Positions 1 through 60,040 of a stretch of DNA of 64,000 nucleotides are shown one piece after another (position 1 is the stretch's first letter; each line of letters begins with the position of its first letter). The notes under the pieces were generated by a model. That model searched no databases. It saw only the letters and a program-made list of their open reading frames with translations, and was not told where the DNA came from. Origin of the DNA: Phycisphaerae bacterium (GTDB taxonomy: Bacteria; Planctomycetota; Phycisphaerae; FEN-1346); the NCBI GenBank assembly GCA_049678285.1, contig JBAUDW010000071.1:294-64293 (forward strand), written 5' to 3'. The position numbers were made by a program, and so were the translations under genes.

Positions 1-846
1 GAAGCGGAATCGTCCGAGAAGCCACGAAAGTTTTGCGGCCGTCCGGCACAAGTTTACGCGGTGCCGCCAGCAGGTCAGGCGGCCCATCGGCAGGACAGGC
101 TGGTCAGGATCAAGTTCCCACGGATGGAGGTAGAGAATGCCAGGCTGGTTTGCGCGCTGGGCTCGGCGCAGCGCCGCTGCCACCACGCGAACCGGCAGCA
201 GGCGCAGGTATCCGCCGCCGCCGACGGGCCAGTTGACCGACACCAGGCGCATCGTCAGGAGAGGGACCTCCAGCAGGCTGCCGCCGGCGGGCCCGCGGGC
301 CCGGTGGACCCACCGCGGCGCGTCGGGCACTCCGTAACGGTCGTGATGGATGGGAAAAACGGAGGAGTCGTACTGGAACCCCGCGCCGGCGAGCACGTCG
401 ATCGCCCAGGCCGTCCGGTGCGTGATGGAAAACGTGGGTGCGCGATACCCGACGACCGGCCGACCAACAATGTCCTCCAGCAGGGCGCGGCTTTCCAGGA
501 CATCCTGCCGGAAACCGTCCGCACCAAGACGCCCCACCATTTGGTGTCGCATCCCGTGCGAAGCGATTTCGTGTCCCGCGTCTGCGATCCGGCGCACCAG
601 GCCGCGATGGCGCTGAGCGACCCATCCGAGCACGAAGAAAGTAGCCGAGGCGCCGCCATCGGACAGCATCGCCAGAATACGGTCCGTGACGGGTTCCAGG
701 CGGCTGGGAATGGATTCCCACTGCTCCTGCTTGACACAGCGGGAAGCCGCTTCGACCTGGAAGTACTCCTCCACGTCGAAACTGAGCATGTGGACCGTGC
801 CGCCCGCGGCGCGCCAGTCGCCCTCCTCGTGGGCGGGACGGGTCAT
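1..846 (-). CDS. polysaccharide deacetylase family protein, PEP-CTERM/exosortase-locus subfamily (partial, 3' end beyond window start)
   Basis: Manual minus-strand translation of 846..1 gives 282 uninterrupted codons (MTRPAHEEGDWRAAGGTVHMLSFDVEEYFQVEAASRCVKQEQWES..ATFFVLGWVAQRH..GHEIASHGMRH..YRAPTFSI..). The DVE(E/D)YFQ N-terminus and NodB-like blocks are typical of exosortase-linked deacetylases. Its ATG overlaps the TPR gene stop as ATGA. It is absent from the supplied ORF track because there is no in-window stop. The true start may instead be the internal Met at 789. Confidence 0.75.
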   Translation of the reverse strand, partial: MTRPAHEEGDWRAAGGTVHMLSFDVEEYFQVEAASRCVKQEQWESIPSRLEPVTDRILAMLSDGGASATFFVLGWVAQRHRGLVRRIADAGHEIASHGMRHQMVGRLGADGFRQDVLESRALLEDIVGRPVVGYRAPTFSITHRTAWAIDVLAGAGFQYDSSVFPIHHDRYGVPDAPRWVHRARGPAGGSLLEVPLLTMRLVSVNWPVGGGGYLRLLPVRVVAAALRRAQRANQPGILYLHPWELDPDQPVLPMGRLTCWRHRVNLCRTAAKLSWLLGRFRF

Positions 847-3800
847 GGTTTGGACCGTTCCATAGCGGCGAGGGCCTGGCGGGCTCCCTCGGCCGCCGCC
901 AGGGTACTCGCCGAGAGGGTCGCGCCGTCGGCCCTGAGTTTGTCAGACAGGGCAACGGCGGCCTGCAAGTGCCAGCGGGCGAAGTCCGCCTGCTTGGCTG
1001 CCATCTCCGCCTGGCCGAGGTGAAAATGCACCTCGGGCGAGGCGGGCAGTCCCTTGACGGCCCGGTACAGCGATTGGATCGCCTCGTCGTTACGGCCCTG
1101 CAAGTGGGCAATCCAACCCAGCGTGTCACGGAAACCCGGCATGTCCGGCGCCGCCTTGACGGCCGCTTCCGCCCACTGCCTCGCCTCGGCCAATTTCGCC
1201 GTATCTTTGGGATACAGGCACGACACAATATAGGCCGAGTTGTTGGCGGCAATGGGGTTCTGGGTGGCATCCCAGACCTGGCGGTACAGGGGCAGGGCAT
1301 CGGCGGGATGGCCGGCCTGTTCCAGGGCCAGGGCCAAGCCAAGCATGGAGTCGGTGTTGTCCTTCTCTGCTTGCACGACCGACTGCCAGATTTCAACGGC
1401 CCTGGCGTAGTCTTTCTGTTCGATGGCCAGCGTTGCCTGCGCGGCGCGTGCCAGCAGGCAATCGGCGGGTTGGAGGACCTTGAGCAGTTCTTGCGAGGCA
1501 GCGGCATCGGGCCTGGTCTGGAGGGCGATTGCGGCGGCCCACTGGCAGGTGGGTCGTGCACTAAGTATCTGCATAGCCCATGCGCGGGCCAGCAGGGGCA
1601 TGCCGAACTCGGCGGCTAGCGACGCCTTGAGCAGGGCGGCGGCCTCATCGGGCGACTTGGGGTTGCGTTTGGCCGAGGCCGTCAGTTCGTCTGACACCTG
1701 ACGCCCGATGTTGCCGGCGCCCCTGACAGTGGCGGACCCGGCCGTGGCCTCGTCCATGGCGCCGGCCACCAGTGCCGCCAGGATCCTGTGAGACGGATTG
1801 AGCGACTGCGGCGGCTTCATCTGCGACAAGGTCTGCTGGATGCGGTCCAGGCGGTCCTTCCAGGGCGCCACGGGTTGCCCCGTCTGTGCGGTGACGAGGA
1901 GACCCAGAAGTGCCTCGTAAGGCGCGGCGGCGCCGACCTCGGGCAGCAGGGGCTTGGCGGAGTCGGGCTTCTGGGCCAGGGCAAGCAGGATGGCCGCCCG
2001 CCGCCACCGCGGGTCGGTGGACACCTGAGCGGACTGAGCGGCCAGGTCGGCGGCGGCGGGCAGGTCGCCCGTCGCGAGCATGGCTTGGAGCGCCATGCCG
2101 CGGACCTCATCGGGCATGAGGCTGCCCGGCGACCGTCGGGCCGAGAATTCGCCGAAAACCTTGAGGGCGTCCGCCGGCCGGTTCGCCCGCAGCAGGATAT
2201 CCATCTGCTGAACGGCAAGGGCCGAAGAGTCGGGCTTGACTTTCTGCGCCTGAAGCAGGACGGCGAGTTTGGCATCGTCCGTGTCTTCCAGGTTTGCCGC
2301 CACCTGCTGTGCGGCGACGTACTGCGGCGCATATTCGGCAATGGAGCCGAGCGCCTTGCGGGCGCGGTCTTTGCGTCCGAGGACCGCAAAGGCCTGACCG
2401 AGCGCCAATTGCAGTCGCGGATCGGTACCGCGGCCCAACTCGGCCAATTGCTCAAACGTATCCGCGGCCTGGGCCGCCAAGCCCCACTGCGCCAGCATCG
2501 TGCCGCGCTCCGACAAGGCCCCCAGCCGGCCGGTCTCGCCGAGGCCTTCCAGCAGTTTCAGCGTGGCCATGGCCTCCTGGGGGTTGCCTGCTGCATCGAG
2601 GATTCGCGCCAGGGCGGCGTACGCCCGCAGGTTCCCGGGCTGCCGCTCGATGGCCTGGCGGTAGCAGTCGATCGCTTCGGCCAGTCTGCCCGCGGCGGTC
2701 AGGATGTCGGCCCGGACCAGGCAGGGCCGGGCGTCGTTGGGCAAGAGTTTGCCCATCTCATCGCACACGGCCATGGCCTTGTCGGTCTGCGGCATGCGTG
2801 CGTAGAGAGCGGCTATGCGTTCGAGGGTGGCGGCGTCGGCGTCTTTGACCGCCTGGCGGACCATGTCGGCGAGAATGGCATCGGCTTCCTTGACGCGGCC
2901 AGCGGCGGTGAGCAGCGTTGCCTTGTAGTAGAGGGCCCGCGACCGGCTGGTGGGGGTGCCGGTCACCTGGTCCAGTTCGATTGTCGCCTGGTCCAGATGC
3001 CCTGCGCGTGCCAGCGACTGGGCGCGGAAGAGGCGGGCGAGGTTGCGCGCGTCCTCCGAGGTGTCCTGCCGGCTGGCCACGCGACCGTACGCTTCGGCTG
3101 CCGCCTCATATTGCCCGCGGCTATCGTACAGCCACCCTACCGCCAGGTTGATCTGGTCGCGTTTGGCGCCGGGGATGGCCGCCAAGGCGGTTTCCACGGC
3201 GTCGGGCTTCAGGGTCCGGCCCATGATGTTGGCTAATTGGAAATAGATCGGTAGCTTGTCCGGCATCTGCTTGAGCACCGCCGTCCACTGCTCGATGCAC
3301 TTGTCGTCCTGCCCCAGCATCTTGTAGGCCTGGCCCAGCAGAAGGCGGGCGTCGGCGTCGGTCGGCCGCTCCTTAAGTTGCTCCAGGCAGACATCGACGC
3401 ACTTTTCAGGCTGGCCGCTGCCGAGCATGGCCTGGGCCATGGCAAGGCCGGCGGGCGCGCCTGGGCCGGCCTGCGGCAGCATCTCCTGGCCGCGCGCCAG
3501 CCGAATGAGGTTGGTCAGTCGCAGCGCAGCGGCGTTGGCCGGATTGCGGTCGAGGATGGCCTGGCACTCGGCCAGGCAGTCGTCGGGCAGCCCGGCCTCG
3601 TACAAGGCGGCGGCAAGGGCTTCCCGCGAGGCCAGGTTGCGGTCGTCAAGGCGAATGGCGGCGCGGTACTGCTCAACGGCTTGAAGCGGCCGGCCCGTCA
3701 GGACAAAGAACCGGCCCAGTTCCATGGGAACGCGTGCGTCCTTGGGGCTTCGCGCCCGTTCTTCCGTCAGCATCCGCTCGGCCTCCGACACCCGCCCCAG

Positions 3801-5432
3801 CATGGCTTTGGCGCGGGCCACGGCCAGCCGTCCGGCGACCGTGGGGGGGGTGCATGCGGCGGCCTTTTCCAGCGTGGCCTTGGCGGCATCGGGGTTCTCA
3901 CCCAGCAGCCGGTACCCCTCGTGAACGGCCAGGAGAACTTCGGGTCTCGCGGCATCGTCCTTCACGGCGGTTTTCAGGGCCGTCCTTGCCAGGTTGACCT
4001 GGTTCGTGGCCTTCGCGGTGTGGACATAGAGCGTCAGGGCCGTCACACGGCTCGGCGCCCCTGCATCGGGGTCGGCTCGGACGGCGTTATAATAGGCCCT
4101 GGCTTCGGAGAAAGCCTCGGGCGCGAAGCCGTCGGACAGGAGCGATTCCGCCAGGTACCGGTGGGCCTCGGCGTAGAAGGGATCGGACCTCGCGGACTGT
4201 CTTTCGATTTCCGTCACCGCCCGCATGGCCTCGCGCGCGGGCTCCTGCTTTCCCGTCTCATGGGCCGCTAAACCGTAATAGTACTGAACGGCGGGCCAGC
4301 GGGGGACCGCCGTCCTCAACGAATACAGTTCCCGCTCGGCTTCGGCCCACTTGTTTTGGAACGACAGGACGCGGGCCCGCATGAACCGCGCGCTGACTCG
4401 CTGGTCGGCGTCGGGCTTTGAGTCAAGGACCTGGGTGCAGAGTTCCATGGCCCGGTCGATGTCACCGGCTCGCACGGCAACCTCGGCCCGGGCGAGTTTG
4501 GCGTCGGCGTCGGCGGGGTGTTTTTCGAGGATGGCGTCTAGCCTTACGATGGCCGACTGGAGGCGGCGGGCCTCCTCGGCAGGGTCGGCGGACTCGTCCA
4601 CGCCGCGGAACTCGGCCCGGATGAGCCTGACGGCGGCGGCCGGCGGCGGATCCTCCAGGGCCAGGATCGCCTCGCGGGCGGCCGCCAGGGCCGTCCGGTC
4701 GCCGCGATCCACACACAGGTCGACCAGCGCCCGGGCCGCCTGGGCGCGATTCGGGTCCTTCTTGACAACGGGCAGCAGGGTGTCGGTCGCCTGGCGGAGC
4801 AGCCGGTCGGCCTCGACCCGCGCTTCCTCGGCCGCCTTGTGCTTGGCGGCCTTGGCGGCGGCGTCGCCCGCCGTCGCAGCCACCTGGGACTCTTTCTCCA
4901 GCCGGTCGCAAAGCAGTTGCTGGGCGGCGCCCATCTGCATCAGATTGAGGCCGATCGCCTGTTGCACATCGAGCGCACTCGTCTCGTCCGGCGCGCGAAC
5001 CCCGGCCAGGTAGTCGTTGGCCTGCCTCAACCCCGCGACAGCCCCGACGAGGACCGAGGTCTGGCGGATCTCGTCTTCCGACACCAGGGCCCTGCGGGCC
5101 GGCATGGCGTAAGTCTCAGCCACGGCCAGCGGGACCGTTACGCCCGGCGGGTTATGTCTAGCGGCCTCTGCCAGCGCGTCGCGGGCCTCGGCGTACTGGC
5201 CTTTACCGCTCAGAGCCATGGCCTTGGCGTAGTAGGAGCGCCAGTTCATCTCTTCCTTGGCCACCGCGGACTCGGCCAATTCCAAGGCCCGGTTGTATTC
5301 CTTGGCGCGCATCGCCAGTTCCGACCGGGCGAGCAACTTCTCGACCGTATTGCGATGCAGGTACCACAGGGTGCCCCCCGTCACGGCCCCGAGGAAGCCC
5401 ACGATGATGAGGACCAGCACGACGCGCCGCAT
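843..5432 (-). CDS. large TPR-repeat protein with one N-terminal transmembrane helix (PrsT-like EPS/exosortase-locus TPR protein)
   Basis: The 1541-aa ORF has repeated A/L/E/R-rich TPR-like helical repeats throughout. The Met at 5432 is preceded by AAGGAGGG and followed by the hydrophobic segment RRVVLVLIIVGFLGAVTGG. It sits between the exosortase and deacetylase genes, as in PEP-CTERM loci. Confidence 0.8.
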   Translation of the reverse strand: MRRVVLVLIIVGFLGAVTGGTLWYLHRNTVEKLLARSELAMRAKEYNRALELAESAVAKEEMNWRSYYAKAMALSGKGQYAEARDALAEAARHNPPGVTVPLAVAETYAMPARRALVSEDEIRQTSVLVGAVAGLRQANDYLAGVRAPDETSALDVQQAIGLNLMQMGAAQQLLCDRLEKESQVAATAGDAAAKAAKHKAAEEARVEADRLLRQATDTLLPVVKKDPNRAQAARALVDLCVDRGDRTALAAAREAILALEDPPPAAAVRLIRAEFRGVDESADPAEEARRLQSAIVRLDAILEKHPADADAKLARAEVAVRAGDIDRAMELCTQVLDSKPDADQRVSARFMRARVLSFQNKWAEAERELYSLRTAVPRWPAVQYYYGLAAHETGKQEPAREAMRAVTEIERQSARSDPFYAEAHRYLAESLLSDGFAPEAFSEARAYYNAVRADPDAGAPSRVTALTLYVHTAKATNQVNLARTALKTAVKDDAARPEVLLAVHEGYRLLGENPDAAKATLEKAAACTPPTVAGRLAVARAKAMLGRVSEAERMLTEERARSPKDARVPMELGRFFVLTGRPLQAVEQYRAAIRLDDRNLASREALAAALYEAGLPDDCLAECQAILDRNPANAAALRLTNLIRLARGQEMLPQAGPGAPAGLAMAQAMLGSGQPEKCVDVCLEQLKERPTDADARLLLGQAYKMLGQDDKCIEQWTAVLKQMPDKLPIYFQLANIMGRTLKPDAVETALAAIPGAKRDQINLAVGWLYDSRGQYEAAAEAYGRVASRQDTSEDARNLARLFRAQSLARAGHLDQATIELDQVTGTPTSRSRALYYKATLLTAAGRVKEADAILADMVRQAVKDADAATLERIAALYARMPQTDKAMAVCDEMGKLLPNDARPCLVRADILTAAGRLAEAIDCYRQAIERQPGNLRAYAALARILDAAGNPQEAMATLKLLEGLGETGRLGALSERGTMLAQWGLAAQAADTFEQLAELGRGTDPRLQLALGQAFAVLGRKDRARKALGSIAEYAPQYVAAQQVAANLEDTDDAKLAVLLQAQKVKPDSSALAVQQMDILLRANRPADALKVFGEFSARRSPGSLMPDEVRGMALQAMLATGDLPAAADLAAQSAQVSTDPRWRRAAILLALAQKPDSAKPLLPEVGAAAPYEALLGLLVTAQTGQPVAPWKDRLDRIQQTLSQMKPPQSLNPSHRILAALVAGAMDEATAGSATVRGAGNIGRQVSDELTASAKRNPKSPDEAAALLKASLAAEFGMPLLARAWAMQILSARPTCQWAAAIALQTRPDAAASQELLKVLQPADCLLARAAQATLAIEQKDYARAVEIWQSVVQAEKDNTDSMLGLALALEQAGHPADALPLYRQVWDATQNPIAANNSAYIVSCLYPKDTAKLAEARQWAEAAVKAAPDMPGFRDTLGWIAHLQGRNDEAIQSLYRAVKGLPASPEVHFHLGQAEMAAKQADFARWHLQAAVALSDKLRADGATLSASTLAAAEGARQALAAMERSKP

Positions 5433-5451
5433 GGGTATTCCCTCCTTCAGT

Positions 5452-7140
5452 CTACCGTAATGCCGCATCCAGGTACGGAATGGCGGCGGCCATCATCGCC
5501 GCGCACCGCCGGCGGGCCGCCTCCTCATCCGCATCGTCGCCCACGGCCGTGGACACCCGAATAAGGGCGCCGCTGGCGTTGCGGCCCAAGAGGCCGTTGG
5601 CGAAGATGACGAGTTGCTGCTTCCAGAAACTGGGCGTGTAATCGTCGCCGCACTTGTATACATACAGATGATACTCGCGGCGCCGGTCCGACGTGGTCAG
5701 CAGCAGCCGGCCGGGCACGTCGCCCCGGCCGGGCACGTCGCGGACCACCACGCCACGGCTCTCAACAACGCTTTCGCCAAAGCACACCTCCGGCGGGTGC
5801 GTGCCCTTGCGGTTGTCCTTGCTGAAGATGACGCAGAAGTCAATCGGCGTGGCGCCTGCCGCCTGGTACCGGCGGTACAGGTAGTCGGTCGTCTCCAGGA
5901 TGGTCAGCGTGTTGTCATCCAGGGCCAGGTCGAAGCCGTAAAGGCGGCGGCCGTCCACTTCGATCGTCCTGGGCAGCGACTTGCCGGCCATGTCCTGGTT
6001 CCAGACGGACACGACGCGGACGTTGAGGGCCCATGCCGCGCCGGCGCCGGCCAAGACCACTATCACCGCCACCCAGCCAGCCCGGCAGCCCACGGCGCGG
6101 GTCAGGCGCGGCCACTGGTCTTCGTCCTCGGGGTCTCGGAGCACGCCGTGGAACAAGGGCAACACGACCGCGGGCCGGCCGGCCAGCCGACGGGCCGCCA
6201 ACACCAGCCGCTCGATGCTGAACATCAGCCAGAAGGCCAGCACGTAGATCAAGAGGCCCGAAAGGTCGTGGTACCAGCCCGCGGCCGTCTTCTCGTCCCA
6301 GACGTCGGCCACCACGATCAGGCTGACGATCCGGATCGAGTTGCTGACCACCGCCACCGGGACGCTCATGGCAAAGAGCCCCAGCCGCCACGCGCCCCGC
6401 AGTTTGCTGACGTAGGCGTAGATGGCCCCGAACGCCAGCAGGCTGACGATCGTCCGCAGGCCGTTGCACACGTTGGCGATCACCAGCGTCTTGTCGCCCT
6501 GGAGCAGGACCTCGTTGGGCCGGTCCCTGGCGCGTTCGACCACGACGCCGATGAGGTTGGCCCCGGCCACGCCGATGTCGGCCGCCCGCATCTTCAGCCA
6601 CAGATTCAGGTTGGCTATCATCACCTCCGGCAACGGCACCATGAAAGCGAGCAACACCAGCGGGAACCACAGCCTCCTCAGGGCGGTGGCTCCCCACAGC
6701 AGCAGCACCAGGCCCGCCAGCACGCCGATCAGGCTGAACCCGCTGACAAAATTCACCCGTGCAAAACACGCCGCCAGGTGCACCAACAGGCTGCCCGCCA
6801 GCACGACCGTGCCCGCGACGCGCTTCGGCTCCAGCGGAATCCGCGTGTGACGCACCAGCAGGACCATCATGATCAGGCTGACCACGGGCACGAGCGGGCC
6901 GTGGGTATAATAACTCTCGCCTCCCACAAGCCGGTCGTACAGGCCCAGGTTGGCGTGGCGCCACGCCGGGAACCACCGGATCCACATCTCGGCAAAGGTG
7001 TTGGCGTAGGCCGCGACCAGCCCGGCGGCCAGCAGAAGCCACGCGGCTGCCAGGAATCGCGTCGGGCGGTTCGTCGGGCTATTAGTCGTGGGGTCGCTTC
7101 TCATAAAATGGCTCGGGCCCTGATGGATGCGCGGCAGCAT
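5452..7140 (-). CDS. exosortase (XrtA-like) fused to a C-terminal EpsI-family domain
   Basis: The N-terminal half is polytopic and carries exosortase-like signatures (VIANVCNGLRTIVSL with Cys, SNSIRIV with Arg). The C-terminal ~200 aa is soluble and EpsI-like (TDYLYRRYQ, PPEVCFGE). It is flanked by PEP-CTERM-locus genes, and two PEP-CTERM proteins lie downstream. Confidence 0.85.
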   Translation of the reverse strand: MLPRIHQGPSHFMRSDPTTNSPTNRPTRFLAAAWLLLAAGLVAAYANTFAEMWIRWFPAWRHANLGLYDRLVGGESYYTHGPLVPVVSLIMMVLLVRHTRIPLEPKRVAGTVVLAGSLLVHLAACFARVNFVSGFSLIGVLAGLVLLLWGATALRRLWFPLVLLAFMVPLPEVMIANLNLWLKMRAADIGVAGANLIGVVVERARDRPNEVLLQGDKTLVIANVCNGLRTIVSLLAFGAIYAYVSKLRGAWRLGLFAMSVPVAVVSNSIRIVSLIVVADVWDEKTAAGWYHDLSGLLIYVLAFWLMFSIERLVLAARRLAGRPAVVLPLFHGVLRDPEDEDQWPRLTRAVGCRAGWVAVIVVLAGAGAAWALNVRVVSVWNQDMAGKSLPRTIEVDGRRLYGFDLALDDNTLTILETTDYLYRRYQAAGATPIDFCVIFSKDNRKGTHPPEVCFGESVVESRGVVVRDVPGRGDVPGRLLLTTSDRRREYHLYVYKCGDDYTPSFWKQQLVIFANGLLGRNASGALIRVSTAVGDDADEEAARRRCAAMMAAAIPYLDAALR

Positions 7141-7347
7141 TGTAGCATCAAGCCCGTCCTCTGTCCACGGGTTGCAGCGTCACGCCGCGTGAAGTTGCGT
7201 TGCGGCACTATCCCAGTATCGGCACTTTCCCAATGCGGATTGACCGGGACTGGCTGTTCTTTCAATTGCTTGGCCGGCGCCTGCGGCACGGCCGCTCTGG
7301 ATGTGGGCTGCCTTAGCGCGGGCGGACTCTGAACCCCTCCCCATTGT

Positions 7348-8331
7348 CTAGACCAAAATCCGGGCCGTTTTAGGTGGACTCATCGCCCCGCTGAGGGCGG
7401 CTGGACCTCCGGGAGCCCGGAGGGCGACCGGAGGTCCAGCCGCCACGCCCGCCGCCTCCCTGCCGACCAGTCCCACCGCCTCGTTCGCTGCGGCCGCCAG
7501 CCCGTACACCTCCGCCGGTGTCCGGTACGATAGCGACTGGTGCGGCCGCTCGTGGTTGTAGAATCCGAAGTACCGCCCGAGGCCCAGCCGCCCCTCCGCC
7601 GGCGTCTGGTAGTCCTTCAGGTACACGTCCTCGTACTTGACCGTCCGCCACAGACGCTCGACGAAGATGTTGTCGAACGCCCGGCCCCGACCGTCCATGC
7701 TGACGGCAATCCCCGACGCCTCCACGAGGCCCGTCCAGGCCTCGCTCGTGAACTGGCTCCCCTGGTCGGTGTTGATGATGCTGGGCCGACGCCCCGTCCG
7801 GAGCGCCGCCTCCAACGCCGCCACACAGAACGCCGCCTCCAACGTCACCGACATCTCCCACGCCACCACGTACCGTGAATACCAGTCCAGGATCGCCACC
7901 AGGTACGCCCAGCCCTGATACAGCGGCAGGTACGTAATGTCCGCCGCCCAGACCTGGTCCGGTCGCACGACCGCCACGTCCCGCAACAGGTACGGATAGG
8001 TCTTGGCGCCCTCCTGGGGCACGCTCAGGCCCCGTTTGCGCCTCGGATAGATCGCCTCCAGGCCCATCCTCCGCAAGAGGCGCCGCACCCGCTTGGGGTT
8101 GACGCGGTGGCCCTCGCGTCGCAGCCACTCGGTCATCTTGGCCACTCCGTAAAACGGCGTCCGCGTGTACTGCTCGTCCAGCAGCCGCATCAGGTGCGCG
8201 TTGGCGACGTCCTCGCCCTGCGGCCGGTAGTAGAGGCTGCTGCGGGCCAGGCCCAGCAGGTCGCACTGCCGGCGGACGGAAATCGCGGGATGTCCCGGCT
8301 CGATGGCCATCCGCTTCGCCTCAACCCCCAA
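7348..8331 (-). CDS. IS3-family transposase OrfB (integrase core, DDE)
   Basis: Motifs [20 protein letters not shown] and [23 protein letters not shown] are classic rve/IS3 OrfB features. Confidence 0.9.
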   Translation of the reverse strand: MGVEAKRMAIEPGHPAISVRRQCDLLGLARSSLYYRPQGEDVANAHLMRLLDEQYTRTPFYGVAKMTEWLRREGHRVNPKRVRRLLRRMGLEAIYPRRKRGLSVPQEGAKTYPYLLRDVAVVRPDQVWAADITYLPLYQGWAYLVAILDWYSRYVVAWEMSVTLEAAFCVAALEAALRTGRRPSIINTDQGSQFTSEAWTGLVEASGIAVSMDGRGRAFDNIFVERLWRTVKYEDVYLKDYQTPAEGRLGLGRYFGFYNHERPHQSLSYRTPAEVYGLAAAANEAVGLVGREAAGVAAGPPVALRAPGGPAALSGAMSPPKTARILV

Positions 8332-8611
8332 GGCCTGATTTTTTTTTCACCCAGTCCAACTCGACCTTCAACTGCCCGATCTGGCGGTACAGTTCCGCCA
8401 CCAGGATCTCCTGCTCCTCGGACCGGCGGTCCCGCCGCCGCGCAAAGACCTCCGGCAACGCCGCCAGGAGCTGCCGCTTCCACTGCGTGATCTGGCTCGG
8501 ATGGACCTGGTACTGACTCGCCAGTTCGGCCAGCGTCCGGTCCCCCTTCGCCGCCTCCAGGGCCACCCGCGCCTTCAGGTCCGCCCCGAACGTCCGCCTC
8601 GCTCGTCCCAT
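8321..8611 (-). CDS. IS3-family transposase OrfA (HTH)
   Basis: 96-aa product with DLKARVALEAAKGDRTLAELASQYQVHPSQITQWKRQ, ending in KKK encoded by the A9 slippery site. Confidence 0.85.
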   Translation of the reverse strand: MGRARRTFGADLKARVALEAAKGDRTLAELASQYQVHPSQITQWKRQLLAALPEVFARRRDRRSEEQEILVAELYRQIGQLKVELDWVKKKSGLGG

Positions 8612-8756
8612 CGATTCGCCTCCCGGCCTTCTCTTCGGCCAGGCGACGAACCCACCTTAACCGCGCGCCCAGTTTTTGGGGAGCATCATACTCTTCGGAA
8701 TTCCGTCCGGCAAGCCCCCGCCGAACAAGAACATGCTTCACTGAATACACGTGTAG

Positions 8757-8962
8757 TATATAATCTGGCCTTTCGCAGGTTTTCATGGCTTTGCGGAACG
8801 CAAGGGAGCCGGAAATGCCCTTTTCCCGCGGTTTTCCCCGGCTTCTTGCCATCGGGCTAATTTTGCGTTCTCCCCCTTGCGCCCATGGCTCAGGGCAAAA
8901 TTAGAATCACCCCGATCCCCCGCAAAATAAGCGTATTTCGTGTTCCAGAATCTGCGAAAGGC
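8757..8962. repeat. nested inverted repeats in an AT-rich intergenic island (outer 16-bp perfect IR ATCTGGCCTTTCGCAG/CTGCGAAAGGCCAGAT, each abutting a TATAAT box; inner 10-bp IR CTAATTTTGC/GCAAAATTAG)
   Basis: Read directly: outer arms at 8763-8778 and 8942-8957, inner arms at 8857-8866 and 8895-8904. GC in this island is far below the window average. Confidence 0.6.
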
Positions 8963-9120
8963 CAGATATAATCCGTCCGGCAGGATCATAAAAAAGGCCG
9001 CCAGAGCAAAGGGCTTACGATGAGATGCTCCGTGGCAGCGTCCGATGGTAAGATAGGGGGGATACGACGATGAGGTATGTTCTATTGCAGCAGGCGCCGC
9101 AAATTTTTGGAGGAATCCAC

Positions 9121-9149
9121 TTGACAACCCCGTAATTATGGAGTATGCT
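9121..9149 (+). promoter_or_regulatory. sigma70-like promoter (TTGACA-N17-TATGCT) upstream of the sugar transferase operon
   Basis: TTGACA at 9121-9126, a 17-nt spacer, TATGCT at 9144-9149. It lies in an AT-rich region about 200 nt upstream of the first gene of the plus-strand operon. Confidence 0.5.
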
Positions 9150-9172
9150 TCTTTTTGGAAGTTTGTAAAAGG

Positions 9173-9346
9173 GGGTGGATCAGCAGGTTTCCTTGGTCGG
9201 GGCGTGCTGATCCACCCGGGACGACGCGCGAGCGAAACGTTTCGCACGCGCCTTATAGCATTATCATAGGCGCGCGTCGTCTCCGGAATCAAGTAAAAAT
9301 CTGGGCGGGCCGTGCAAGCAGCACGGTCCAAGCGGGAGACGACGCG
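9173..9346 (+). promoter_or_regulatory. highly structured 5' leader: three hairpins and a triplicated GACGACGCG element overlapping the SD/start codon (putative riboregulator/attenuator)
   Basis: Hairpin 1 has a 12-13 bp perfect stem (GGGTGGATCAGCA 9173-9185 / TGCTGATCCACCC 9205-9217). Hairpin 2 has arms GGGACGACGCGCG (9218-9230) and CGCGCGTCGTCTCC (9271-9284), with inner palindromes CGAAACGTTTCG between them. A third copy GGGAGACGACGCG at 9333-9345 contains the likely SD and abuts the ATG at 9347. It could pair alternatively with the 9271-9284 arm. Confidence 0.5.
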
Positions 9347-10003
9347 ATGCCGGAACCGGTCACTATCATAGGCTTCGGGGCGGGGTTCCTCGCCTTGACG
9401 AGCCATCTGGCCCGTCGCTACTTTGACGTCGCCAAGGAAGTCGCCGACATCGTCCTCGGATTCCTCGCCCTTGTGCTGAGCCTCCCCGTGTTGATCGTTT
9501 GCGCCGCCATTATCAAACTGTCGCGTTCCGGCCCCGTCCTTTACCGGCAGCAGCGCGTCGGGAAAAACGGTCGGCTGTTCAAGATGTACAAGTTGCGGAC
9601 GATGTACGCCAATGCCGAGTCGGCCACCGGCGCCGTGTGGGCGGCCCGCGGCGACCCGCGCGTCCTGCCGGCCTGCCGCTGGATGCGCCGTAGCCACGTC
9701 GACGAACTCCCGCAACTCATCAACGTGATCCGCGGCGACATGTCGCTGGTGGGGCCCAGGCCGGAACGGCCGGAAATCCTCAGCCAACTCGAAAAAACTT
9801 ACCCCGGCGTCCGCAAGCGGCTGGCGGTCCGGCCCGGCATCACGGGCTTGGCGCAAGTCCGCAACGGCTACGATACGAGCGTCGAGGCCTTCCGCGCCAA
9901 ACTGGAGGCTGACCTCGAATACATCGAGCAGCGGAACTGGAGCACCGAACTCCGGATCCTGGCAGCCACCATGGGCAAACTGCACGACCGCACGGCCCGT
10001 TAG
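9347..10003 (+). CDS. polyprenyl-phosphate sugar phosphotransferase (small bacterial sugar transferase, PglC/WbaP-C-terminal type), initiating EPS transferase
   Basis: One N-terminal TM segment (IVLGFLALVLSLPVLIVCAAII), then KLRTMYANAE, RRSHVDELPQLINVIRGDMSLVGPRPERPE and RPGITGLAQV, the hallmark sugar-transferase motifs. The start is chosen at the Met after the structured leader; the ORF track's 9155 start is read-through of the leader. Confidence 0.85.
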   Translation: MPEPVTIIGFGAGFLALTSHLARRYFDVAKEVADIVLGFLALVLSLPVLIVCAAIIKLSRSGPVLYRQQRVGKNGRLFKMYKLRTMYANAESATGAVWAARGDPRVLPACRWMRRSHVDELPQLINVIRGDMSLVGPRPERPEILSQLEKTYPGVRKRLAVRPGITGLAQVRNGYDTSVEAFRAKLEADLEYIEQRNWSTELRILAATMGKLHDRTAR

Positions 10004-10132
10004 CCGCACGGCCGCTTGAACAAAGGTGCTGCAACAGAAACTACACAGGATCGGAATGAACGCCACAACGAGGGCAGTACTCGGCCTTGTGGACCTGGCC
10101 ATTATCTTCATCCTCTAAGGAGGGAGAGTATT

Positions 10133-11278
10133 ATGATGTGCCGACAGGGAATTATCCTGGTAATCGCGGTGACCTTCCTGGCCAGCCTGGCCGGGACGGG
10201 GCAGGCCGTGACGGTCCCCCTGACGGACCCCACTTACATCCCGCACGATGATGTGCTGGCCTGGAACTGGCAGATCCTCGAGTTGAGCGGCGCCCTTGCA
10301 GCCGTACCGCACAGTCCCAGCGGCAACACCGTATGGCTGCGGATGTTCACGGGCGGCAATACCAACGCCACACCCAACGCCTCCCCCGTCTTTACGCCGG
10401 TGAAACTGGGCAACACCGATCTGAACCCGACGCAGAGCGCCCAGTACTGGTTCGGCCTGCATTATGACAACCAGGATGTCGTCGATAATGTTCTGACTGC
10501 CGGCCAGGTGCTAGGCGTGATCCAGGGGCTGGACGGCCCGACCGCCGTGTGTCCGGTGTTCCTCTTCGACCAGAACCAGTCCGGGGGCGCTTTCGGCAAC
10601 CCCATCCCGGAGGGATGGCCGACCGACCCCACGGCCCCCAACTACCCCAAGGACGACGCCATCTGGCTGCGGGGCCGCGTGATCCTGGTTCCGCCGAGCG
10701 CGATTCCCGGCGGCCTCGGCGCCCTGAATGGCTTGACGGCGACCCAGGTGAACGCACTGATCGACCCCCTGGTCCAGCCGGCGGTGCCCGGCATTCCCAA
10801 CCCGCCCGGCCCGTACGACTACATGCCCTCCGTCGACCCGGTTTCAGGCGTCGTCACGTTCTATTACCGGGATACGGTGTTCAGCGATTTCCCGGATGCC
10901 GCCGGCAACGCTTCGCATCCCACCTGGACGAACAACTGGGCCTACGCGCCAGGACTGTACGATCCGACGCTCTTTCTGCCGCTGCCTCCGGACTATTTTT
11001 CTCCAGAGGCGCTGTTAGAGTTGCCGGTCGACAACAACGGGCAGGGCGCGTTCGCCGACTGGGGCGGCTACTTCCCCCGGTTGGACCTGAGCCTGTATTC
11101 GGATTACGCCTTCTTCGTTGAACTCCAGTCGCGCTACAACAACGACGGGTTCGAAGAGTTGTACATCGTGGGCGGCCTGCCCCGGCGGCAGCCCATTCCC
11201 GAGCCGGTGACGATGGCCGGCCTTCTGCTCGGTATCGGCGGGCTGGTGACGTACGTGCGGAAGCGCCGGACAGCCTGA
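10133..11278 (+). CDS. PEP-CTERM sorting-domain protein (exosortase substrate) 1
   Basis: Signal peptide MMCRQGIILVIAVTFLASLAGTGQA. The C-terminus is IPEPVTMAGLLLGIGGLVTYVRKRRTA, i.e. PEP motif, TM helix and basic tail. AAGGAGGG lies upstream of the ATG. Confidence 0.85.
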   Translation: MMCRQGIILVIAVTFLASLAGTGQAVTVPLTDPTYIPHDDVLAWNWQILELSGALAAVPHSPSGNTVWLRMFTGGNTNATPNASPVFTPVKLGNTDLNPTQSAQYWFGLHYDNQDVVDNVLTAGQVLGVIQGLDGPTAVCPVFLFDQNQSGGAFGNPIPEGWPTDPTAPNYPKDDAIWLRGRVILVPPSAIPGGLGALNGLTATQVNALIDPLVQPAVPGIPNPPGPYDYMPSVDPVSGVVTFYYRDTVFSDFPDAAGNASHPTWTNNWAYAPGLYDPTLFLPLPPDYFSPEALLELPVDNNGQGAFADWGGYFPRLDLSLYSDYAFFVELQSRYNNDGFEELYIVGGLPRRQPIPEPVTMAGLLLGIGGLVTYVRKRRTA

Positions 11279-11464: not shown

Positions 11465-12436
11465 ATGAGGTACTGCAAATTGCTTTTGATGTGCGGCATG
11501 GTGCTCGCCTTGAGCAGCCCGGTGTGGGCGCTTTCCACAACCATTCCGTTCCAGACGGCCTACGTCGGGCCGGTATCATGGCACTTCTCCGACTGGGATG
11601 AGGGGCGCGTGTACACGGGGTTGCTCGCGGACAACCAAACGCCGGTTACGGTAGGCCAAGTCTATGCGCCGGGCGACCTTCAGTCTATTGCTCCCAAAGG
11701 GCCTGCAGGGGTCGGGGATGCCTGGGGTATCATGCGCGTTGAAACCATTTACAACGCGACGTTGACCGGTCCCAACTCCATGACCATCGGCAGCACGCTA
11801 CTGTATGGTTATGGCGACAGTGGGACAGAACTCGCGGGCATTTTCTACGGCCGGCAAGATGACCAGATCATCTTCAACGCGGATGGGTCGCAGACCATCT
11901 ACTCGGACCCATTGGGTTACTTCGGTGACCGAGTCGACCTGTACATTCAGCCGGTCGGAACGGCGGCTAACTGGGATACGGGTATGGCTGGTCCGGGCGC
12001 GTCTGGAGCGGTGGGCGTATACCCCGGTATCGGTGACGATCCTGATTCCACGTTGGTTCTGACCGGTTACATCACGCCGGGCTTCTTGAATGGCGGTCTT
12101 GACGGCGTGTTTTCGAACTTCACGCCGGCTGGCAATACGGGCGAAGGCACATACGGACTCTACCTCACATGGGATGGCGGAACGGATCTGAATCGGTTCG
12201 GCTCCCCGGCCTGGCCGGGCATTTTCCCGTTCTTTGGCGGGCCGGGTGCTCCATTCGATGCCGATGCTCGTCTCAAGGGCACGATCTCGCCCACCATTTA
12301 CCCGTTAGCCGACCCGTGGCTGGTGAACACGTCCGATCCGGCGTTCATGTATGTCGCCGTTCCCGAGCCTGTGACGATGGCCGGCATGCTCCTGGGTATC
12401 GGTTGCCTGGGCAGTTACCTCCGCAAGCGTCGTTAA
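11465..12436 (+). CDS. PEP-CTERM sorting-domain protein (exosortase substrate) 2
   Basis: Signal peptide MRYCKLLLMCGMVLALSSPVWA. C-terminal VPEPVTMAGMLLGIGCLGSYLRKRR. Its passenger region is unrelated to that of protein 1. Confidence 0.85.
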   Translation: MRYCKLLLMCGMVLALSSPVWALSTTIPFQTAYVGPVSWHFSDWDEGRVYTGLLADNQTPVTVGQVYAPGDLQSIAPKGPAGVGDAWGIMRVETIYNATLTGPNSMTIGSTLLYGYGDSGTELAGIFYGRQDDQIIFNADGSQTIYSDPLGYFGDRVDLYIQPVGTAANWDTGMAGPGASGAVGVYPGIGDDPDSTLVLTGYITPGFLNGGLDGVFSNFTPAGNTGEGTYGLYLTWDGGTDLNRFGSPAWPGIFPFFGGPGAPFDADARLKGTISPTIYPLADPWLVNTSDPAFMYVAVPEPVTMAGMLLGIGCLGSYLRKRR

Positions 12437-13636: not shown

Positions 13637-13655
13637 GGCAAGGTGTTCAGTCCCA

Positions 13656-14980
13656 CGAGATCACCCATTTTGAGATGGGGCCAAAGGAAAGACCTCCCAA
13701 GTGCCGAGTTTGCAGGTGGTTAGATGCACCAGGCACGGAAGGGAGGTCGTCATGCGAAAGCAAAGTCTTCTGATGAAAGTGTCGGCCCGTTTGGAGACGT
13801 TTCTGAAGCCAATTTTGGCGGAGGTGGACAAGGTTCGCCGGCGGTTCGTTCGGCAGGCTGTCACGGGGATTCTGACCAGCCGGTCGCTGGTGGTGACCGA
13901 GATGGCCCGCCGGATCCACGACGGCACCGCGGCGCTCGATTACACCGCCAAACGCCTCTGCCGCGAACTGGTGGCCGAGACGTGGCACCTGCCGACGCTC
14001 CAACAGCGCCACCTTGACGCGGTCGCCTCCTGGGTCGGCGAGGAGACACCCATCGCCGTGGACCTGACGGACCTGGCCAAGCCGCGTGGGCGGCAGTTCG
14101 AGTACCTGGCCCTCGTACGCGACGGCGACCAGGATCGACTGCAGCCCGGCTACTGGTGTCTGGAAGCCTACACGGCCGATGGCGAGGAACCGCTGCCGCT
14201 TGTTCTGCAGCCGTTCAGCGTCCAGGACCCGCGGACGCCGAGTCAGAACCTCGTCATCTTGGCGGCCCTGGAGCAGTTGCGTCAGACGTTTGCCAACCGC
14301 GGACTGTACCTCTTTGACCGCGGCTTCGATGCCGGAGAGATCCTCAACGCCTTGCTGGATAAAGGGATGCGCTTCCTGGTGCGGCTCCGCGGCGACCGCC
14401 ATCTGGTCCTGGACCATGGCGTCCGGTTGCCCGCTCGCGACATCGCCGATCGGCTGGCGACGGCGAACGTGGCATGGCGTTGGCGACCGGCCTCTTGCCG
14501 GCTCGATGCGCACTGGATCGGGTACCTGCCGGCCCGCCTGCCCGGACGCCCGGAGCCGCTGACGCTGGTCGTCGCCCTCTTCCCTGGACCGGACGGGGGG
14601 ATGATGATGCTCCTGACGAATCGGGCGGTCGCGTCCGCCCCACAGGCCGAGCACACGCTCCGGCTCTATGCCCACCGGTGGAAGGCCGAGGAGGGCATCC
14701 GGGTCCTGAAGCAGGAGGTCGGCCTGGAGGGGTTCCGCATCCGATGCCTGGAAGCCATCCGGCGTCTGGTCTTCCTCGCCCTTCTGGCGATCGCGTTCCT
14801 GGTGTCGATCAGCGAAAAGACCCTCAGCCTCGCCGAGCAGATCATCCGACGCGGTCAGCCGCTCCGCCGCGCCCGCGGCATGATCCTCTACCGCCTCGCT
14901 CGCGGCATACGCTATCTCTTCACACACCTATCCCCACCCAACCTCGCCGCACTCAGGAGATTCCAAAATGGGTGATCTCG
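13656..14980 (+). mobile_element. IS4-superfamily (IS701/IS4-like) insertion sequence with perfect 17-bp terminal inverted repeats
   Basis: CGAGATCACCCATTTTG at 13656-13672 is the exact reverse complement of CAAAATGGGTGATCTCG at 14964-14980. One transposase ORF lies between them, ending inside the right IR. No clean target-site duplication was recognised. Confidence 0.8.
13752..14975 (+). CDS. IS4-family DDE transposase
   Basis: GGGAGG SD, then ATG at 13752. It carries DLTDLAKP, FDRGFDAGE and LYAHRWKAEEGIRVLKQ (the Y-R-E-K signature of IS4-superfamily DDE transposases). Confidence 0.8.
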   Translation: MRKQSLLMKVSARLETFLKPILAEVDKVRRRFVRQAVTGILTSRSLVVTEMARRIHDGTAALDYTAKRLCRELVAETWHLPTLQQRHLDAVASWVGEETPIAVDLTDLAKPRGRQFEYLALVRDGDQDRLQPGYWCLEAYTADGEEPLPLVLQPFSVQDPRTPSQNLVILAALEQLRQTFANRGLYLFDRGFDAGEILNALLDKGMRFLVRLRGDRHLVLDHGVRLPARDIADRLATANVAWRWRPASCRLDAHWIGYLPARLPGRPEPLTLVVALFPGPDGGMMMLLTNRAVASAPQAEHTLRLYAHRWKAEEGIRVLKQEVGLEGFRIRCLEAIRRLVFLALLAIAFLVSISEKTLSLAEQIIRRGQPLRRARGMILYRLARGIRYLFTHLSPPNLAALRRFQNG

Positions 14981-15307
14981 AGGTTTAGTCCCCCCTGTTG
15001 CTCTTGGCGCGGAACCCCGTTGGGTTGTGTTTCTCTGAGGCGAGCGGACACAGGCATCAGGGAAAATCGCCCTTTTTCAGGGGGTGTTCTCGCTGGCCCC
15101 GCAATATGGTGGAAGGAGTCGCCTTGGTGTCGAACCACGGCCAGCCACGCCTATAACACGTTGTCACCAAATGGTTTACATCGAGTGTACCCCGCATCTG
15201 GTTGCCCACATCAGGAGACGGAGGATTTGACAAGGAGGGCAGTATGCGTAGTCTTAAGTTCAGCAAGAAGGCCTGTGGGGGGTTGCGGAGTACAAAGGAG
15301 GATTGCG

Positions 15308-29298: not shown

Positions 29299-29598
29299 AT
29301 GGCAGGGAAACGCAGACGGTTTTCGGCGGAGTTCAAGGCCCGGGTCGTTCGAGCGGCGCTCCGGGAAGACAAGACGCTGGCGGAGTTGGCTGGCGCGTTC
29401 GAGGTGCATCCGAACCAGATCACCGAGTGGAAGCGTCAGGTGCTGGAGGCCATGCCGGATCTGTTTGGTCGTCGCAAGCAGGCCGACGCGAAGTCGGCCG
29501 AGGAGCACGAGGCTCGGCTGTACCAGCAGGTCGGTCAGCTCCAGGTGGAACTGGAGTGGCTGAAAAAAAAAGCTCGGCAGCTTGGCATGGACGTCTGA
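29299..29598 (+). CDS. IS3-family transposase OrfA (HTH)
   Basis: [36 protein letters not shown]; ends [10 protein letters not shown] at the A9 run. Confidence 0.85.
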
Positions 29599-30673
29599 GG
29601 CGAAGCGAATGATGGTCGAACGCGACAATCCGAACATCCCTGTCGTCCGGCAGTGCGAGTTGCTGACGCTGTCGCGCAGCAGCCTGTACTACCGCCCCGC
29701 TCGCGACGAGGAGGCCGAGGCCTTCGAGTGTCGGGTCTTGAACGCCATCGACGAGTTGTACACGGCCCGTCCGCACCTGGGGCGGTACGGCATGACCGAC
29801 GCCCTGGCCCAGGAGCGACAACTCGAGGTGAACCCCAAGCGGGTGCGTCGGCTGATGAAGATGCTGGGGTTGGAAGCGGTCTATCCTCGGCCGCGGCGGA
29901 ACACGTCGCAGGCCAGTGCCGAGCACCCGAAGTACCCATACCTGCTGCGGAACGTGGAGGTTAGCGCCGTGGATCAGGTCTGGTGCGCGGACCTCACGTA
30001 CATCCGGCTTCATCGAGGCTTTGCCTACCTGGTGGCGGTGATGGACTGGTTCAGCCGCTGCGTGCTGGCGTGGGAGTTGAGTAACACGCTGGACGCGAAC
30101 TTCTGCGTGGAGGCCTTGGCGCGGGCCTTGGCTTCGGGCCGGCGGCCGGCGATCTTCAACACCGACCAGGGCAGCCAGTTTACGAGCGAGGCCTTCACGA
30201 CGGTGCTGATGGAGGCGGGGATCGCCATCAGTATGGACGGGGTGGGCCGGGCGTTCGACAACATCATGGTCGAGCGGCTGTGGCGGACGGTGAAGTACGA
30301 GGAGGTGTACCTGCGGGACTACGAGACGCCGGCGGAGGCCCGCTTGGGGCTGGGTCGGTACTTCAGGTACTACAACCATCAGCGGCGACACAGGAGCCTG
30401 GATCGGCGGACCCCGGCCAGCGTGTATGGCTTGGCCGAGCCGGCCACGGTCCAGCGGGCTCTTGTGCGGCTGGTGAGAAGCGATAGAATCGAGACACCTG
30501 CCTTCGCCAAGGCTTCGGCGGGCAGGGGCGGCGGGCGTTCCGTCGCCGCGAATGCTGCTGTCGCTCCGGTCGCCCTCCGGGCTCCCTCCGCGACAGCAGC
30601 GGGAACGTTACCCATGGCGACGGTTCCACCTTATTCCAGGCTGGAAACTGTCCAGCGCATGGGGACAAGCTAA
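29582..30673 (+). CDS. IS3-family transposase OrfB (DDE integrase core)
   Basis: [43 protein letters not shown]. It has a low-complexity C-terminal tail running into the right end. Confidence 0.9.
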
Positions 30674-31021
30674 ATCCTCGGCGGATTCGCCGGTTTGCAT
30701 TGGGGGGGATTATGAGTTATACTACCGCGTGCTTGCGGCGGTTTTCGCTCGCATATGCTCCCTACGCCATGCGGCAGGGCCGGTGCGTGGGAGTCTGGGT
30801 TTGCACCCATGCGTTGCGGCGTTGTCGCTGTCCATCACGCAACCGAGCCATAGGGCTCCGAGGCACCGTAACTCGCGTTCTTCAAGTGGGGCAGCTTGGA
30901 TGAGGCAGGAAAGCCCGACCGCCGCGATGGGGGTGTCTATATGCGCTGGTGCTGGCGTGCGGCACCGCCAGGGCGCCTTGCTGGGCCGGGAATGGCTGAA
31001 TGCGGGCGATATCTGTTACCG

Positions 31022-58757: not shown

Positions 58758-59810
58758 ATGGCTGACGAGCGTACAGGCGCAAGAGACTGTTCCGTCGCCG
58801 TCTCGACGGAGCCGCCCGATTGGTCGGATTACCTTGCCGCAAGCGCCCAGGCTACCATCTACCACGACCCGCGCTGGGGCCAGATCATGGCCTCGGCGTA
58901 CGGCAATCGCCCCTACTTCCTGACGGCGCGCTACGAGGGTCGGGTCGTCGGCATTCTGCAACTCGTGGCCCAGAAAGGCCTCCCTTTCGGGCTGCACCTG
59001 TGCAGCCTGCCCTACTTTGACGCCGCGGGGGTTGTGGCTGACGACGAAGGGGCGCGGCGTGCGCTCCTGGGTGAGACTCGGGCACTCATGGAACGCTTGG
59101 GCGCGGAGTGGACTGAACTGAGGCACCTTTCCTGCTGCGACCCTTACCTTCCGAACCGCACGGACAAAGTGACCATGTGGCTGGAACTTCCTTCCAGCGC
59201 CGAAGGCGCTTGGAACAGCCTCACCACCAAGATGCGGACCAAGGTCCGCAAGGCTCAGAAGGCGGCCGTGAACCTGGAACAGGGGCACAGCGAACTGGTG
59301 GGCGATTTCTACACCATCTACGCTCGAACCATGCGTGACTTGGGCAGCCCCCCGCACGGCCAACGGTTCTTCCGGCTGGTGTGCGACACGTTCGGACCCG
59401 CTGTTCGGCTCTTCGTCGTCCGCTCGGAGGGGCAGCCCATTGCATCGGCATTGACCCTCATGGACCGGCAGGGGTTTCACGTCCCGTGGTCGGGCAGCGA
59501 CCACCGTGCGGCCGGTGGCTCGGCGAACAGGTTCCTCTTCTGGTCCATGATCGCCTACTCCAGCGACGCCGGAGCCGCTAAGTTCGACTTCGGCCGTAGC
59601 ACTCGGGGCTCGGGAACGCACGAGTTCAAGAAGGAGTGGGGGACCCAGGAGATTCCGCTCTGCTGGGAGTACCTCTTGCCGCTGGGCGGCACCGTTCCCG
59701 ACCAACGCCCGGATAGTCCCAAGTACCGGTTACTGAGTGCGATGTGGCGGCGGCTGCCGCTAAGCCTCGCCTGCCTGATCGGTCCGCGAATCATCGCGAG
59801 GTTGTCATAG
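58758..59810 (+). CDS. FemAB-like (GNAT-fold) acyl/aminoacyl-transferase, second copy
   Basis: Same architecture and conserved blocks as the 42355-43362 gene (..IYHDPRWGQIMASAYG.., ..TLMDRQGFHVPWSGSD.., ..FKKEWGTQEIPLCWEYL..). Confidence 0.6.
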   Translation: MADERTGARDCSVAVSTEPPDWSDYLAASAQATIYHDPRWGQIMASAYGNRPYFLTARYEGRVVGILQLVAQKGLPFGLHLCSLPYFDAAGVVADDEGARRALLGETRALMERLGAEWTELRHLSCCDPYLPNRTDKVTMWLELPSSAEGAWNSLTTKMRTKVRKAQKAAVNLEQGHSELVGDFYTIYARTMRDLGSPPHGQRFFRLVCDTFGPAVRLFVVRSEGQPIASALTLMDRQGFHVPWSGSDHRAAGGSANRFLFWSMIAYSSDAGAAKFDFGRSTRGSGTHEFKKEWGTQEIPLCWEYLLPLGGTVPDQRPDSPKYRLLSAMWRRLPLSLACLIGPRIIARLS

Positions 59811-60040
59811 TGCAGAAAATATTGCACTGACCGACCCCAAGCAGAAGTAGTTCGCCCAGCCATCCAGGAGCCGGTTCAATTCCGTCACCTTCTGCCGGAC
59901 CGTCTTGCGGGCCTCCCCGCGACCGGTCATCGCCCGGATCACCGTTACCAGCCGCGCGATCGGTTTCTCGGCCCGGCACCCCGACGAGATCGTTGCAAGA
60001 CGAATCGGTTCGGAGGCCGGGCCGTGAAGCACTACACACT
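59805..60040 (-). pseudogene. remnant of a group II intron reverse-transcriptase/maturase gene (C-terminal domain-X fragment only)
   Basis: The minus-strand reading ends ..KPIARLVTVIRAMTGRGEARKTVRQKVTELNRLLDGWANYFCLGSVSAIFSAL*. The L..GWANYF motif is the hallmark of the group II intron maturase (GIIM) domain, but no RT domain precedes it. Confidence 0.45.

Follow-up and report, generated by a model that had tools for sequence, protein, structure and literature searches.

Bacterial MITEs, such as the Correia elements of Neisseria, are short, non-coding elements that carry terminal inverted repeats and are flanked by a target-site duplication. They are found in many copies, show presence/absence polymorphism between close lineages, are frequently inserted in promoters or beside them and have a strong potential for hairpin formation if they are transcribed. 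In the window (the whole 64-kb stretch of DNA that we analysed), positions 8765-8965 are very probably a 201-bp MITE, an internally deleted relative of a 1,425-bp IS family of Planctomycetota. The likeness between the window element and Correia-type MITEs is in the structure and in the pattern of copies. Correia elements duplicate TA, whereas the family of the window element duplicates 7-9 bp, and the transposon family, the termini and the host phylum are also different.

The element lies between divergently transcribed genes, in the control region of an exosortase/PEP-CTERM polysaccharide locus from an uncultured Phycisphaerae/Planctomycetota lineage. The coordinates of the element, its parts and the neighboring genes are listed in Table 1. 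The IS3-family element next to it is flanked by ACTC on both sides (7326-7329 and 8690-8693) and is absent from the orthologous loci L011 and L101. There is a diverged second IS3 copy near 29400-30700, which is about 76% identical over 421 nt. A further direct repeat of 76 nt, at 11193-11268 and 12357-12432 (78% identity), is coding sequence and specifies the PEP-CTERM sorting tails of two secreted proteins encoded one after the other. The window and contig L003 differ by 15 mismatches in all, which are clustered in 11917-12124, inside the second PEP-CTERM gene.

Table 1. Features of the control region and related sequences, in window positions.
Feature	Position	Strand	Remark
TPR protein	843-5468	-	
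Exosortase-EpsI fusion	5452-7140	-	
IS3-family element, 1,360 bp	7330-8689	-	orfA 8321-8611, orfB 7348-8331
Promoter-like target TTCACT-16-TATAAT	8737-8764	+	10/12 matches; the -10-like hexamer is the insertion site
Left target-site duplication ATATAAT	8758-8764	+	Single copy in L011
MITE, CTGGCC...GGCCAG	8765-8965	.	Absent from L011 and L101; full-length relatives at other loci
Left terminal inverted repeat CTGGCCTTTCGCAG	8765-8778	+	The same 14-mer ends every family member
Inner 10-nt inverted repeat	8857-8904	.	Collinear with the IS hairpin AATTTCGCG...CGCGAAAAT
Right terminal inverted repeat, CTGCGAAAGGCCAG on the + strand	8952-8965	-	
Right target-site duplication ATATAAT	8966-8972	+	
Small polyprenyl-phosphate sugar transferase	9347-10003	+	The next genes encode proteins with PEP-CTERM tails
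IS-family 5' leader remnant, 68 nt	59969-60036	+	83-85% identity to IS copies; no terminus, no transposase

The initial annotation of this region described a perfect 16-bp inverted repeat with ATATAAT adjoining each arm on the same strand, and both features are present. The repeat consists of ATCTGGCCTTTCGCAG at 8763-8778 and its reverse complement at 8952-8967, and 18 of 19 positions match when the arms are extended to 8763-8781 and 8949-8967. The spacing between the 16-nt arms is 173 nt (8779-8951), not the 163 bp given at first. The two ATATAAT copies, one at each outer edge, form a direct repeat, and each of them shares with its neighboring 16-nt arm the outer AT of that arm. First-order Markov simulation of 8500-9400 (1000 runs) gave perfect inverted repeats of at most 13 nt. 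The observed 16-mer is therefore not a chance repeat and needs a cause. When the 64-kb window was searched for further copies of the arms, with the 16-mer and the 14-mer and up to three mismatches, we found none: the two arms were returned together with chance-level matches only. The region had also been called a low-GC island, which is true relative to its flanks (64-74% GC) but not in absolute terms, as the GC content is 50-56% over approximately 8600-9300.

The cause of the repeat is given by the comparison with orthologous loci without the IS, a check that had been proposed with the annotation. Both L011 (sugar transferase 97% identical) and L101 (81% identical), which come from related Phycisphaerae, are without IS3 and without the 201-bp element. 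L011 aligns to window positions 8692-8765 and then to 8966-9153, with an overlap of 8 nt in L011 coordinates. It reads ...GTGTAGTATATAATCCGTCCGGC..., in which one ATATAAT is directly followed by CCGTCC, and its empty site is GTAGTATATAATCCGTCC with the single ATATAAT. L101 aligns to 8692-8762 and 8971-9108 with nothing between. It has TACATACGGCAT where TATATAAT is expected, so that L101 attests the absence of the element and not the precise sequence before the insertion. Since both loci align straight across the site, window positions 8765-8965 are a 201-bp insertion. The two TATAAT boxes, one noted beside each arm, are a single pre-existing site duplicated by this insertion rather than promoter elements belonging to the respective arms. 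In the window's own lineage, ten contigs reach the site and all have the terminal repeat; contigs long enough to include the entire element have it at both ends. L001-L010, whose sugar transferases are identical, represent one strain (at least 99.86% identity) and are uninformative on conservation.

The same alignments show two further features of the control region. A perfect 11-nt direct repeat, TCCGTCCGGCA, is located after IS3 (8702-8712) and again after the right target duplication (8972-8982). These repeats are older than the MITE, because L011 has both of them (TCCGGCCGGCG and TCCGTCCGGCG) 71 nt apart, where they bracket the promoter-like site. We estimate that such a repeat is expected by chance in about one of ten regions of this size. 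It could be a regulator site. At 9153|9158, the window is without about 294 bp that are found in L011 (4551-4844) between the promoter-like site TTGACA-17-TATGCT and a conserved leader. The L011 segment has homologous sequence in L012 (76%) and L014 (66%), which identifies the difference as a deletion in the window lineage.

The terminal inverted repeats of the inserted element are perfect over 14 of 14 positions and match at 17 of 19 with extension, and the similarity on the left continues imperfectly to about 8783. The bases flanking the 14-mer vary among the family copies. The AT of the 16-mer is thus part of the target duplication rather than of the terminal repeat, and the 16-mer is composed of the 14-bp terminal repeat and the self-complementary AT of the duplicated target. 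With C8765 as the first base of the repeat, the target duplication is 7 bp, and a duplication of 8 bp (ATATAATC) is also conceivable. The element is too short, at 201 bp, to encode a transposase, and the long open reading frames overlapping it (8783-10111 on the minus strand and 8501-8860 on the plus strand) have no Pfam match. By every structural criterion tested (six of six), the element is a MITE: it is short and without transposase, it has terminal repeats and a duplication, it is polymorphic, its termini are shared, and there are multiple copies. The copies are counted at the family level, at unrelated sites elsewhere, as its own genome was covered by the 64-kb window only. Among the explanations offered with the initial annotation, the ends of a MITE-like element is the one borne out, by the two empty orthologous sites, the target-site duplication, the termini in common with an autonomous IS and the many copies elsewhere.

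The family copies were collected by two scans. We scanned one genome per species with CTGGCCTTTCGCAGRTTYT, a pattern satisfied by both ends, and obtained 54 loci, where about 17 would be expected by chance according to our estimate. The excess was concentrated in Planctomycetota/Phycisphaerae MAGs, several of which had 3-8 matches. In k141 contigs, many matches stand about 120-140 nt short of a contig end, which is typical of repeats in assemblies. The ends of the family form two conserved classes, one at the start of the transposase gene and the other at its 3' end. In the transposase-start class, the N-terminus encoded at L025 is 52% identical to residues 8-72 of the L068 transposase. Four loci (L026, L041, L055, and L061) are solo IS ends with no transposase behind them. 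The second scan searched metagenomes for two termini 150-180 nt apart and gave 30 loci, with elements that are 183-184, 187, and 204-205 bp long. In all, the termini bound dozens of MITEs of 183-205 bp in Planctomycetota MAGs and lake metagenomes.

We pooled the metagenome loci, the paired-terminus elements of the genome scan and the window copy, which resulted in 33 distinct insertion sites. The family copies are at unrelated sites and in both orientations, and they are flanked by duplications, which are perfect at 21 of the 33 sites (eight sites have 7 bp, eleven have 8 bp, and two have 9 bp). The GC content of the duplications is 26%, compared with 55% in the surrounding DNA. The closest relatives found for the window element are only 70-72% identical to it over the full length (L066, L074, L075, L084, L095, L099, and L100). 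These seven copies of 204-205 bp are mutually 93-100% identical. In the literature searched, no MITE of this family was described from Planctomycetes, which does not prove the absence of one. The same IS termini also occur several times in MAGs labelled as Anaerolineales (Chloroflexota), mostly at contig ends; the loci are L019, L033, L039, L050, L058, L059 (MAG ERP119294_co1_415), and L028. These copies reflect either horizontal spread of the IS or mis-binned Planctomycetota contigs.

Complete IS copies with the termini of the MITE are present at L068 (1245-2669) and L027 (3083-4507). Both are 1,425 bp long, and their target duplications are ATCCCTA and CTCTCTAG, respectively (7-8 bp). Their single transposase, of 440 aa, scored 264 bits against NCBIfam NF049999 (IS701 family; IS701_3), for which the cut-off is 170, and it also matches Pfam DDE_5 and DDE_Tnp_1. 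The NCBIfam IS4 models gave 18-49 bits, against cut-offs of 115-250. The transposase motif ...FAQRWTIEQLFSVAK... has the arrangement F-(2)-R-(3)-E-(6)-K, with phenylalanine in place of the YREK tyrosine. Members of the IS701 family are 1,400-1,550 bp long and usually do not have the YREK tyrosine; almost all of them make duplications of exactly 4 bp, and their end signature is ---YACT-Y--YR (De Palmenaer et al., 2008; PMC2266710). The ISPepr1 subgroup of IS4 has 5'-CT ends with the consensus YT-AA-YTT---A, duplications of 7-8 bp, a preference for AT-rich targets, a complete YREK and a length of 1,500-1,600 bp (PMC2266710).

The partner IS is similar to IS701 in its profile score, its length of 1,425 bp and the missing YREK tyrosine. 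However, in contrast to the 4-bp duplications of IS701, those of the partner family are 7-9 bp (21 of 33 sites) and 4 bp at none, and the partner ends CTGGCCTTTCGCAG are different from the IS701 signature. The CTGG... ends, the duplications of 7-9 bp and the targets with 26% GC are similar to ISPepr1, and the partner termini fit six of the eight specified positions in the ISPepr1 end consensus. Compared with ISPepr1, on the other hand, the partner is shorter, has F for the YREK tyrosine, and is far below the cut-offs of the IS4 profiles. We filed the partner as an IS701-type transposase with an atypical duplication length, which is a canonical member of neither group. The IS/MITE family thus mixes a transposase profile of the IS701 type with DNA hallmarks of the ISPepr1 type (CT ends and AT-rich 7-9-bp duplications).

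Within the 64-kb window, a tblastn search with the L068 transposase gave no match, and the only trace of the IS partner is the 68-nt remnant (Table 1). It matches L025, L060, L069, L041, L053, and L026 over a stretch located 66-135 nt inward from their transposase-5' ends. The intergenic region around the remnant (59805-60036), between a GNAT/FemAB-like gene and an NAD-dependent epimerase, contains two adjacent mobile-element fragments. The fragment beside the remnant derives from a group II intron maturase domain, of which it represents the C-terminal part, on the minus strand (approximately 59805-59951). Another insertion sequence is located at 13653-14983, with 20-nt terminal repeats CCACGAGATCACCCATTTTG that are complementary at 19 of 20 positions. 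Its DDE transposase (13701-14975) is below every NCBIfam cut-off for IS4, IS701, and IS1634 (best 72 bits against 150). We rejected this IS4/IS701-like element as the MITE partner because of its different termini and only marginal transposase similarity to L068.

The inner repeat consists of CTAATTTTGC at 8857-8866 and GCAAAATTAG at 8895-8904. It is perfect over 10 nt, as annotated, with a spacer of 28 nt, but the CCATGG described as its center (8883-8888) is inside the spacer about 5 nt off the center. The inner and outer repeats are not concentric, their centers being at about 8880 and 8865. AATTTCGCG...CGCGAAAAT is an inverted repeat of the IS, located 65-115 nt inward of the transposase-3' end. 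In its right-hand part, the interior of the window element is collinear with this transposase-3' segment, with local alignment z of 3.0-4.6 for L022, L028, and L030, and for the L066 cluster against the segment z is 5.7-6.9. For the window element interior against L068, z is 0.2. Strict local alignment of the MITE with L068 recovered the termini only, and interior homology was found only with the other IS copies and the L066 cluster. One compensatory change is present in the inner hairpin, C-G in the IS and the L066 cluster and T-A in the window. This change was read by eye, as MAFFT set the window arm one column out of register. From the collinearity and the compensatory change we infer that the inner repeat descends from the parent IS, in which it is a subterminal hairpin.

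The element was likely mobilized by a transposase of the L068 type supplied in trans. The transposase would bind the terminal repeats and integrate the element through a staggered cut of 7-9 bp. The landing in TATAAT may be explained by AT-rich heptamers, which would be rare in a genome of 65-70% GC and clustered in promoter regions. A preference for AT-rich targets would then make promoter-like sequences frequent targets in a GC-rich genome.

A regulatory side effect of the insertion on the operon is possible, and it would add to the MITE explanation rather than exclude it. The insertion coincides exactly with the -10-like hexamer of TTCACT-16-TATAAT, and the sugar transferase starts 375 nt downstream of it. 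The TTCACT -35 and the left TATAAT are now 208 bp further away from the DNA downstream. The left TATAAT copy has retained its -35 and would read into the MITE. The MITE may act on the expression of the downstream polysaccharide operon in three ways: it may split the upstream promoter, add a hairpin-forming stretch of 208 nt to read-through transcripts, or provide the right TATAAT with a new -35. Read-through is possible, since the prediction returned no terminator-like site for 8500-9500, and the MITE RNA would fold strongly (-88.5 kcal/mol, z = -6.3). The same control region has also received the IS3 insertion and the deletion of about 294 bp relative to its relatives. However, the stronger promoter-like site TTGACA-17-TATGCT (9121-9149) is downstream of the MITE and untouched. 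TTCACT-16-TATAAT is itself a putative promoter: L011 retains the whole site, but the -10 hexamer has not been kept in L101. For the right TATAAT copy, the best -35 available within the MITE, TTCCAG with an 18-nt spacer, is weak and matches at two of six positions. We consider it unlikely that the MITE now acts on the operon. A broader proposal is that the preference for AT-rich 7-9-mers steers insertions to -10 boxes, that the MITE, IS3 and the 294-bp deletion together rewired the exosortase/PEP-CTERM operon, and that the subterminal hairpin is functional. This is a slightly longer shot. If it is true, the subterminal hairpin of the IS/MITE family would be a functional site, for transposase binding or for the blocking of read-through.

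A structured small RNA had also been suggested for this region. Such an RNA, or a cis-regulatory RNA, would have the 16-19-bp repeat as its closing helix. Both strands fold better than shuffled sequences (z = -6.3 and -5.6), the promoter-like site ends at the left arm, and the inner hairpin has one compensatory change between lineages. However, the stability comes mostly from the terminal repeats, which are common to any MITE, and no terminator is predicted. The element is absent from the orthologous loci L011 and L101, and its copies at unrelated sites are in both orientations and flanked by duplications. In Rfam 15, there was no match at the gathering score in the whole window, and over 8500-9450 none on the element even at E = 10. 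One weak match at 9364-9399 (E = 1.6; score 17 bits, gathering score 67.7) is outside the element. We regard the RNA reading as very improbable and a dedicated RNA gene as unlikely, although incidental transcription of the element may occur. The arms had further been proposed as an operator pair at which a dimeric repressor would loop the DNA upstream of the polysaccharide operon. Two perfect palindromic arms separated by about 190 bp, within a divergent control region and beside promoter-like hexamers, would suit this reading. It is practically excluded because the arms are missing from the L011 and L101 control regions with the flanking sequence kept, the same 14-mer pairs bound transposase genes and MITEs at 33 unrelated sites, and the neighboring TATAAT boxes are one duplicated target.

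Apart from the MITE, a structured 5' leader is located at 9168-9346, directly upstream of the sugar-transferase start codon (9347). The leader is kept in ten orthologs with protein identities of 72-97%. Among these are L104 and L106, where no exosortase gene was called in the 1.5 kb examined upstream. In the hairpin 9173-9185/9205-9217, pairing reaches 97.6% and both bases have changed in 6 of 13 pairs; in the hairpin 9226-9236/9241-9251, pairing is 84% and both bases have changed in 5 of 9 pairs. These compensatory changes support the two leader hairpins (9173-9217 and 9226-9251). The segment 9273-9284 has two alternative partners, 9218-9230 and 9335-9346. The second of these adjoins the ATG, and a long-range helix covers the bases immediately 5' of the start codon. 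This pairing arrangement resembles a sequestor/anti-sequestor switch. The leader has no match in Rfam, and it is a candidate for an undescribed cis-regulatory RNA.

The assignment of the element as a MITE removes a false lead, as there is neither an operator pair nor a small-RNA gene at this site. It also gives a caution for sequence scans: an AT-preferring transposon in a GC-rich genome will often mimic an inverted repeat flanked by TATAAT boxes. The element itself matters little beyond annotation, and the leader at 9168-9346 is of more interest than the MITE. For the organism, the polysaccharide control region has been altered three times in one lineage, by IS3, the MITE and the deletion. 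For the family, the copies collected here document an undescribed IS/MITE family in uncultured Phycisphaerae.
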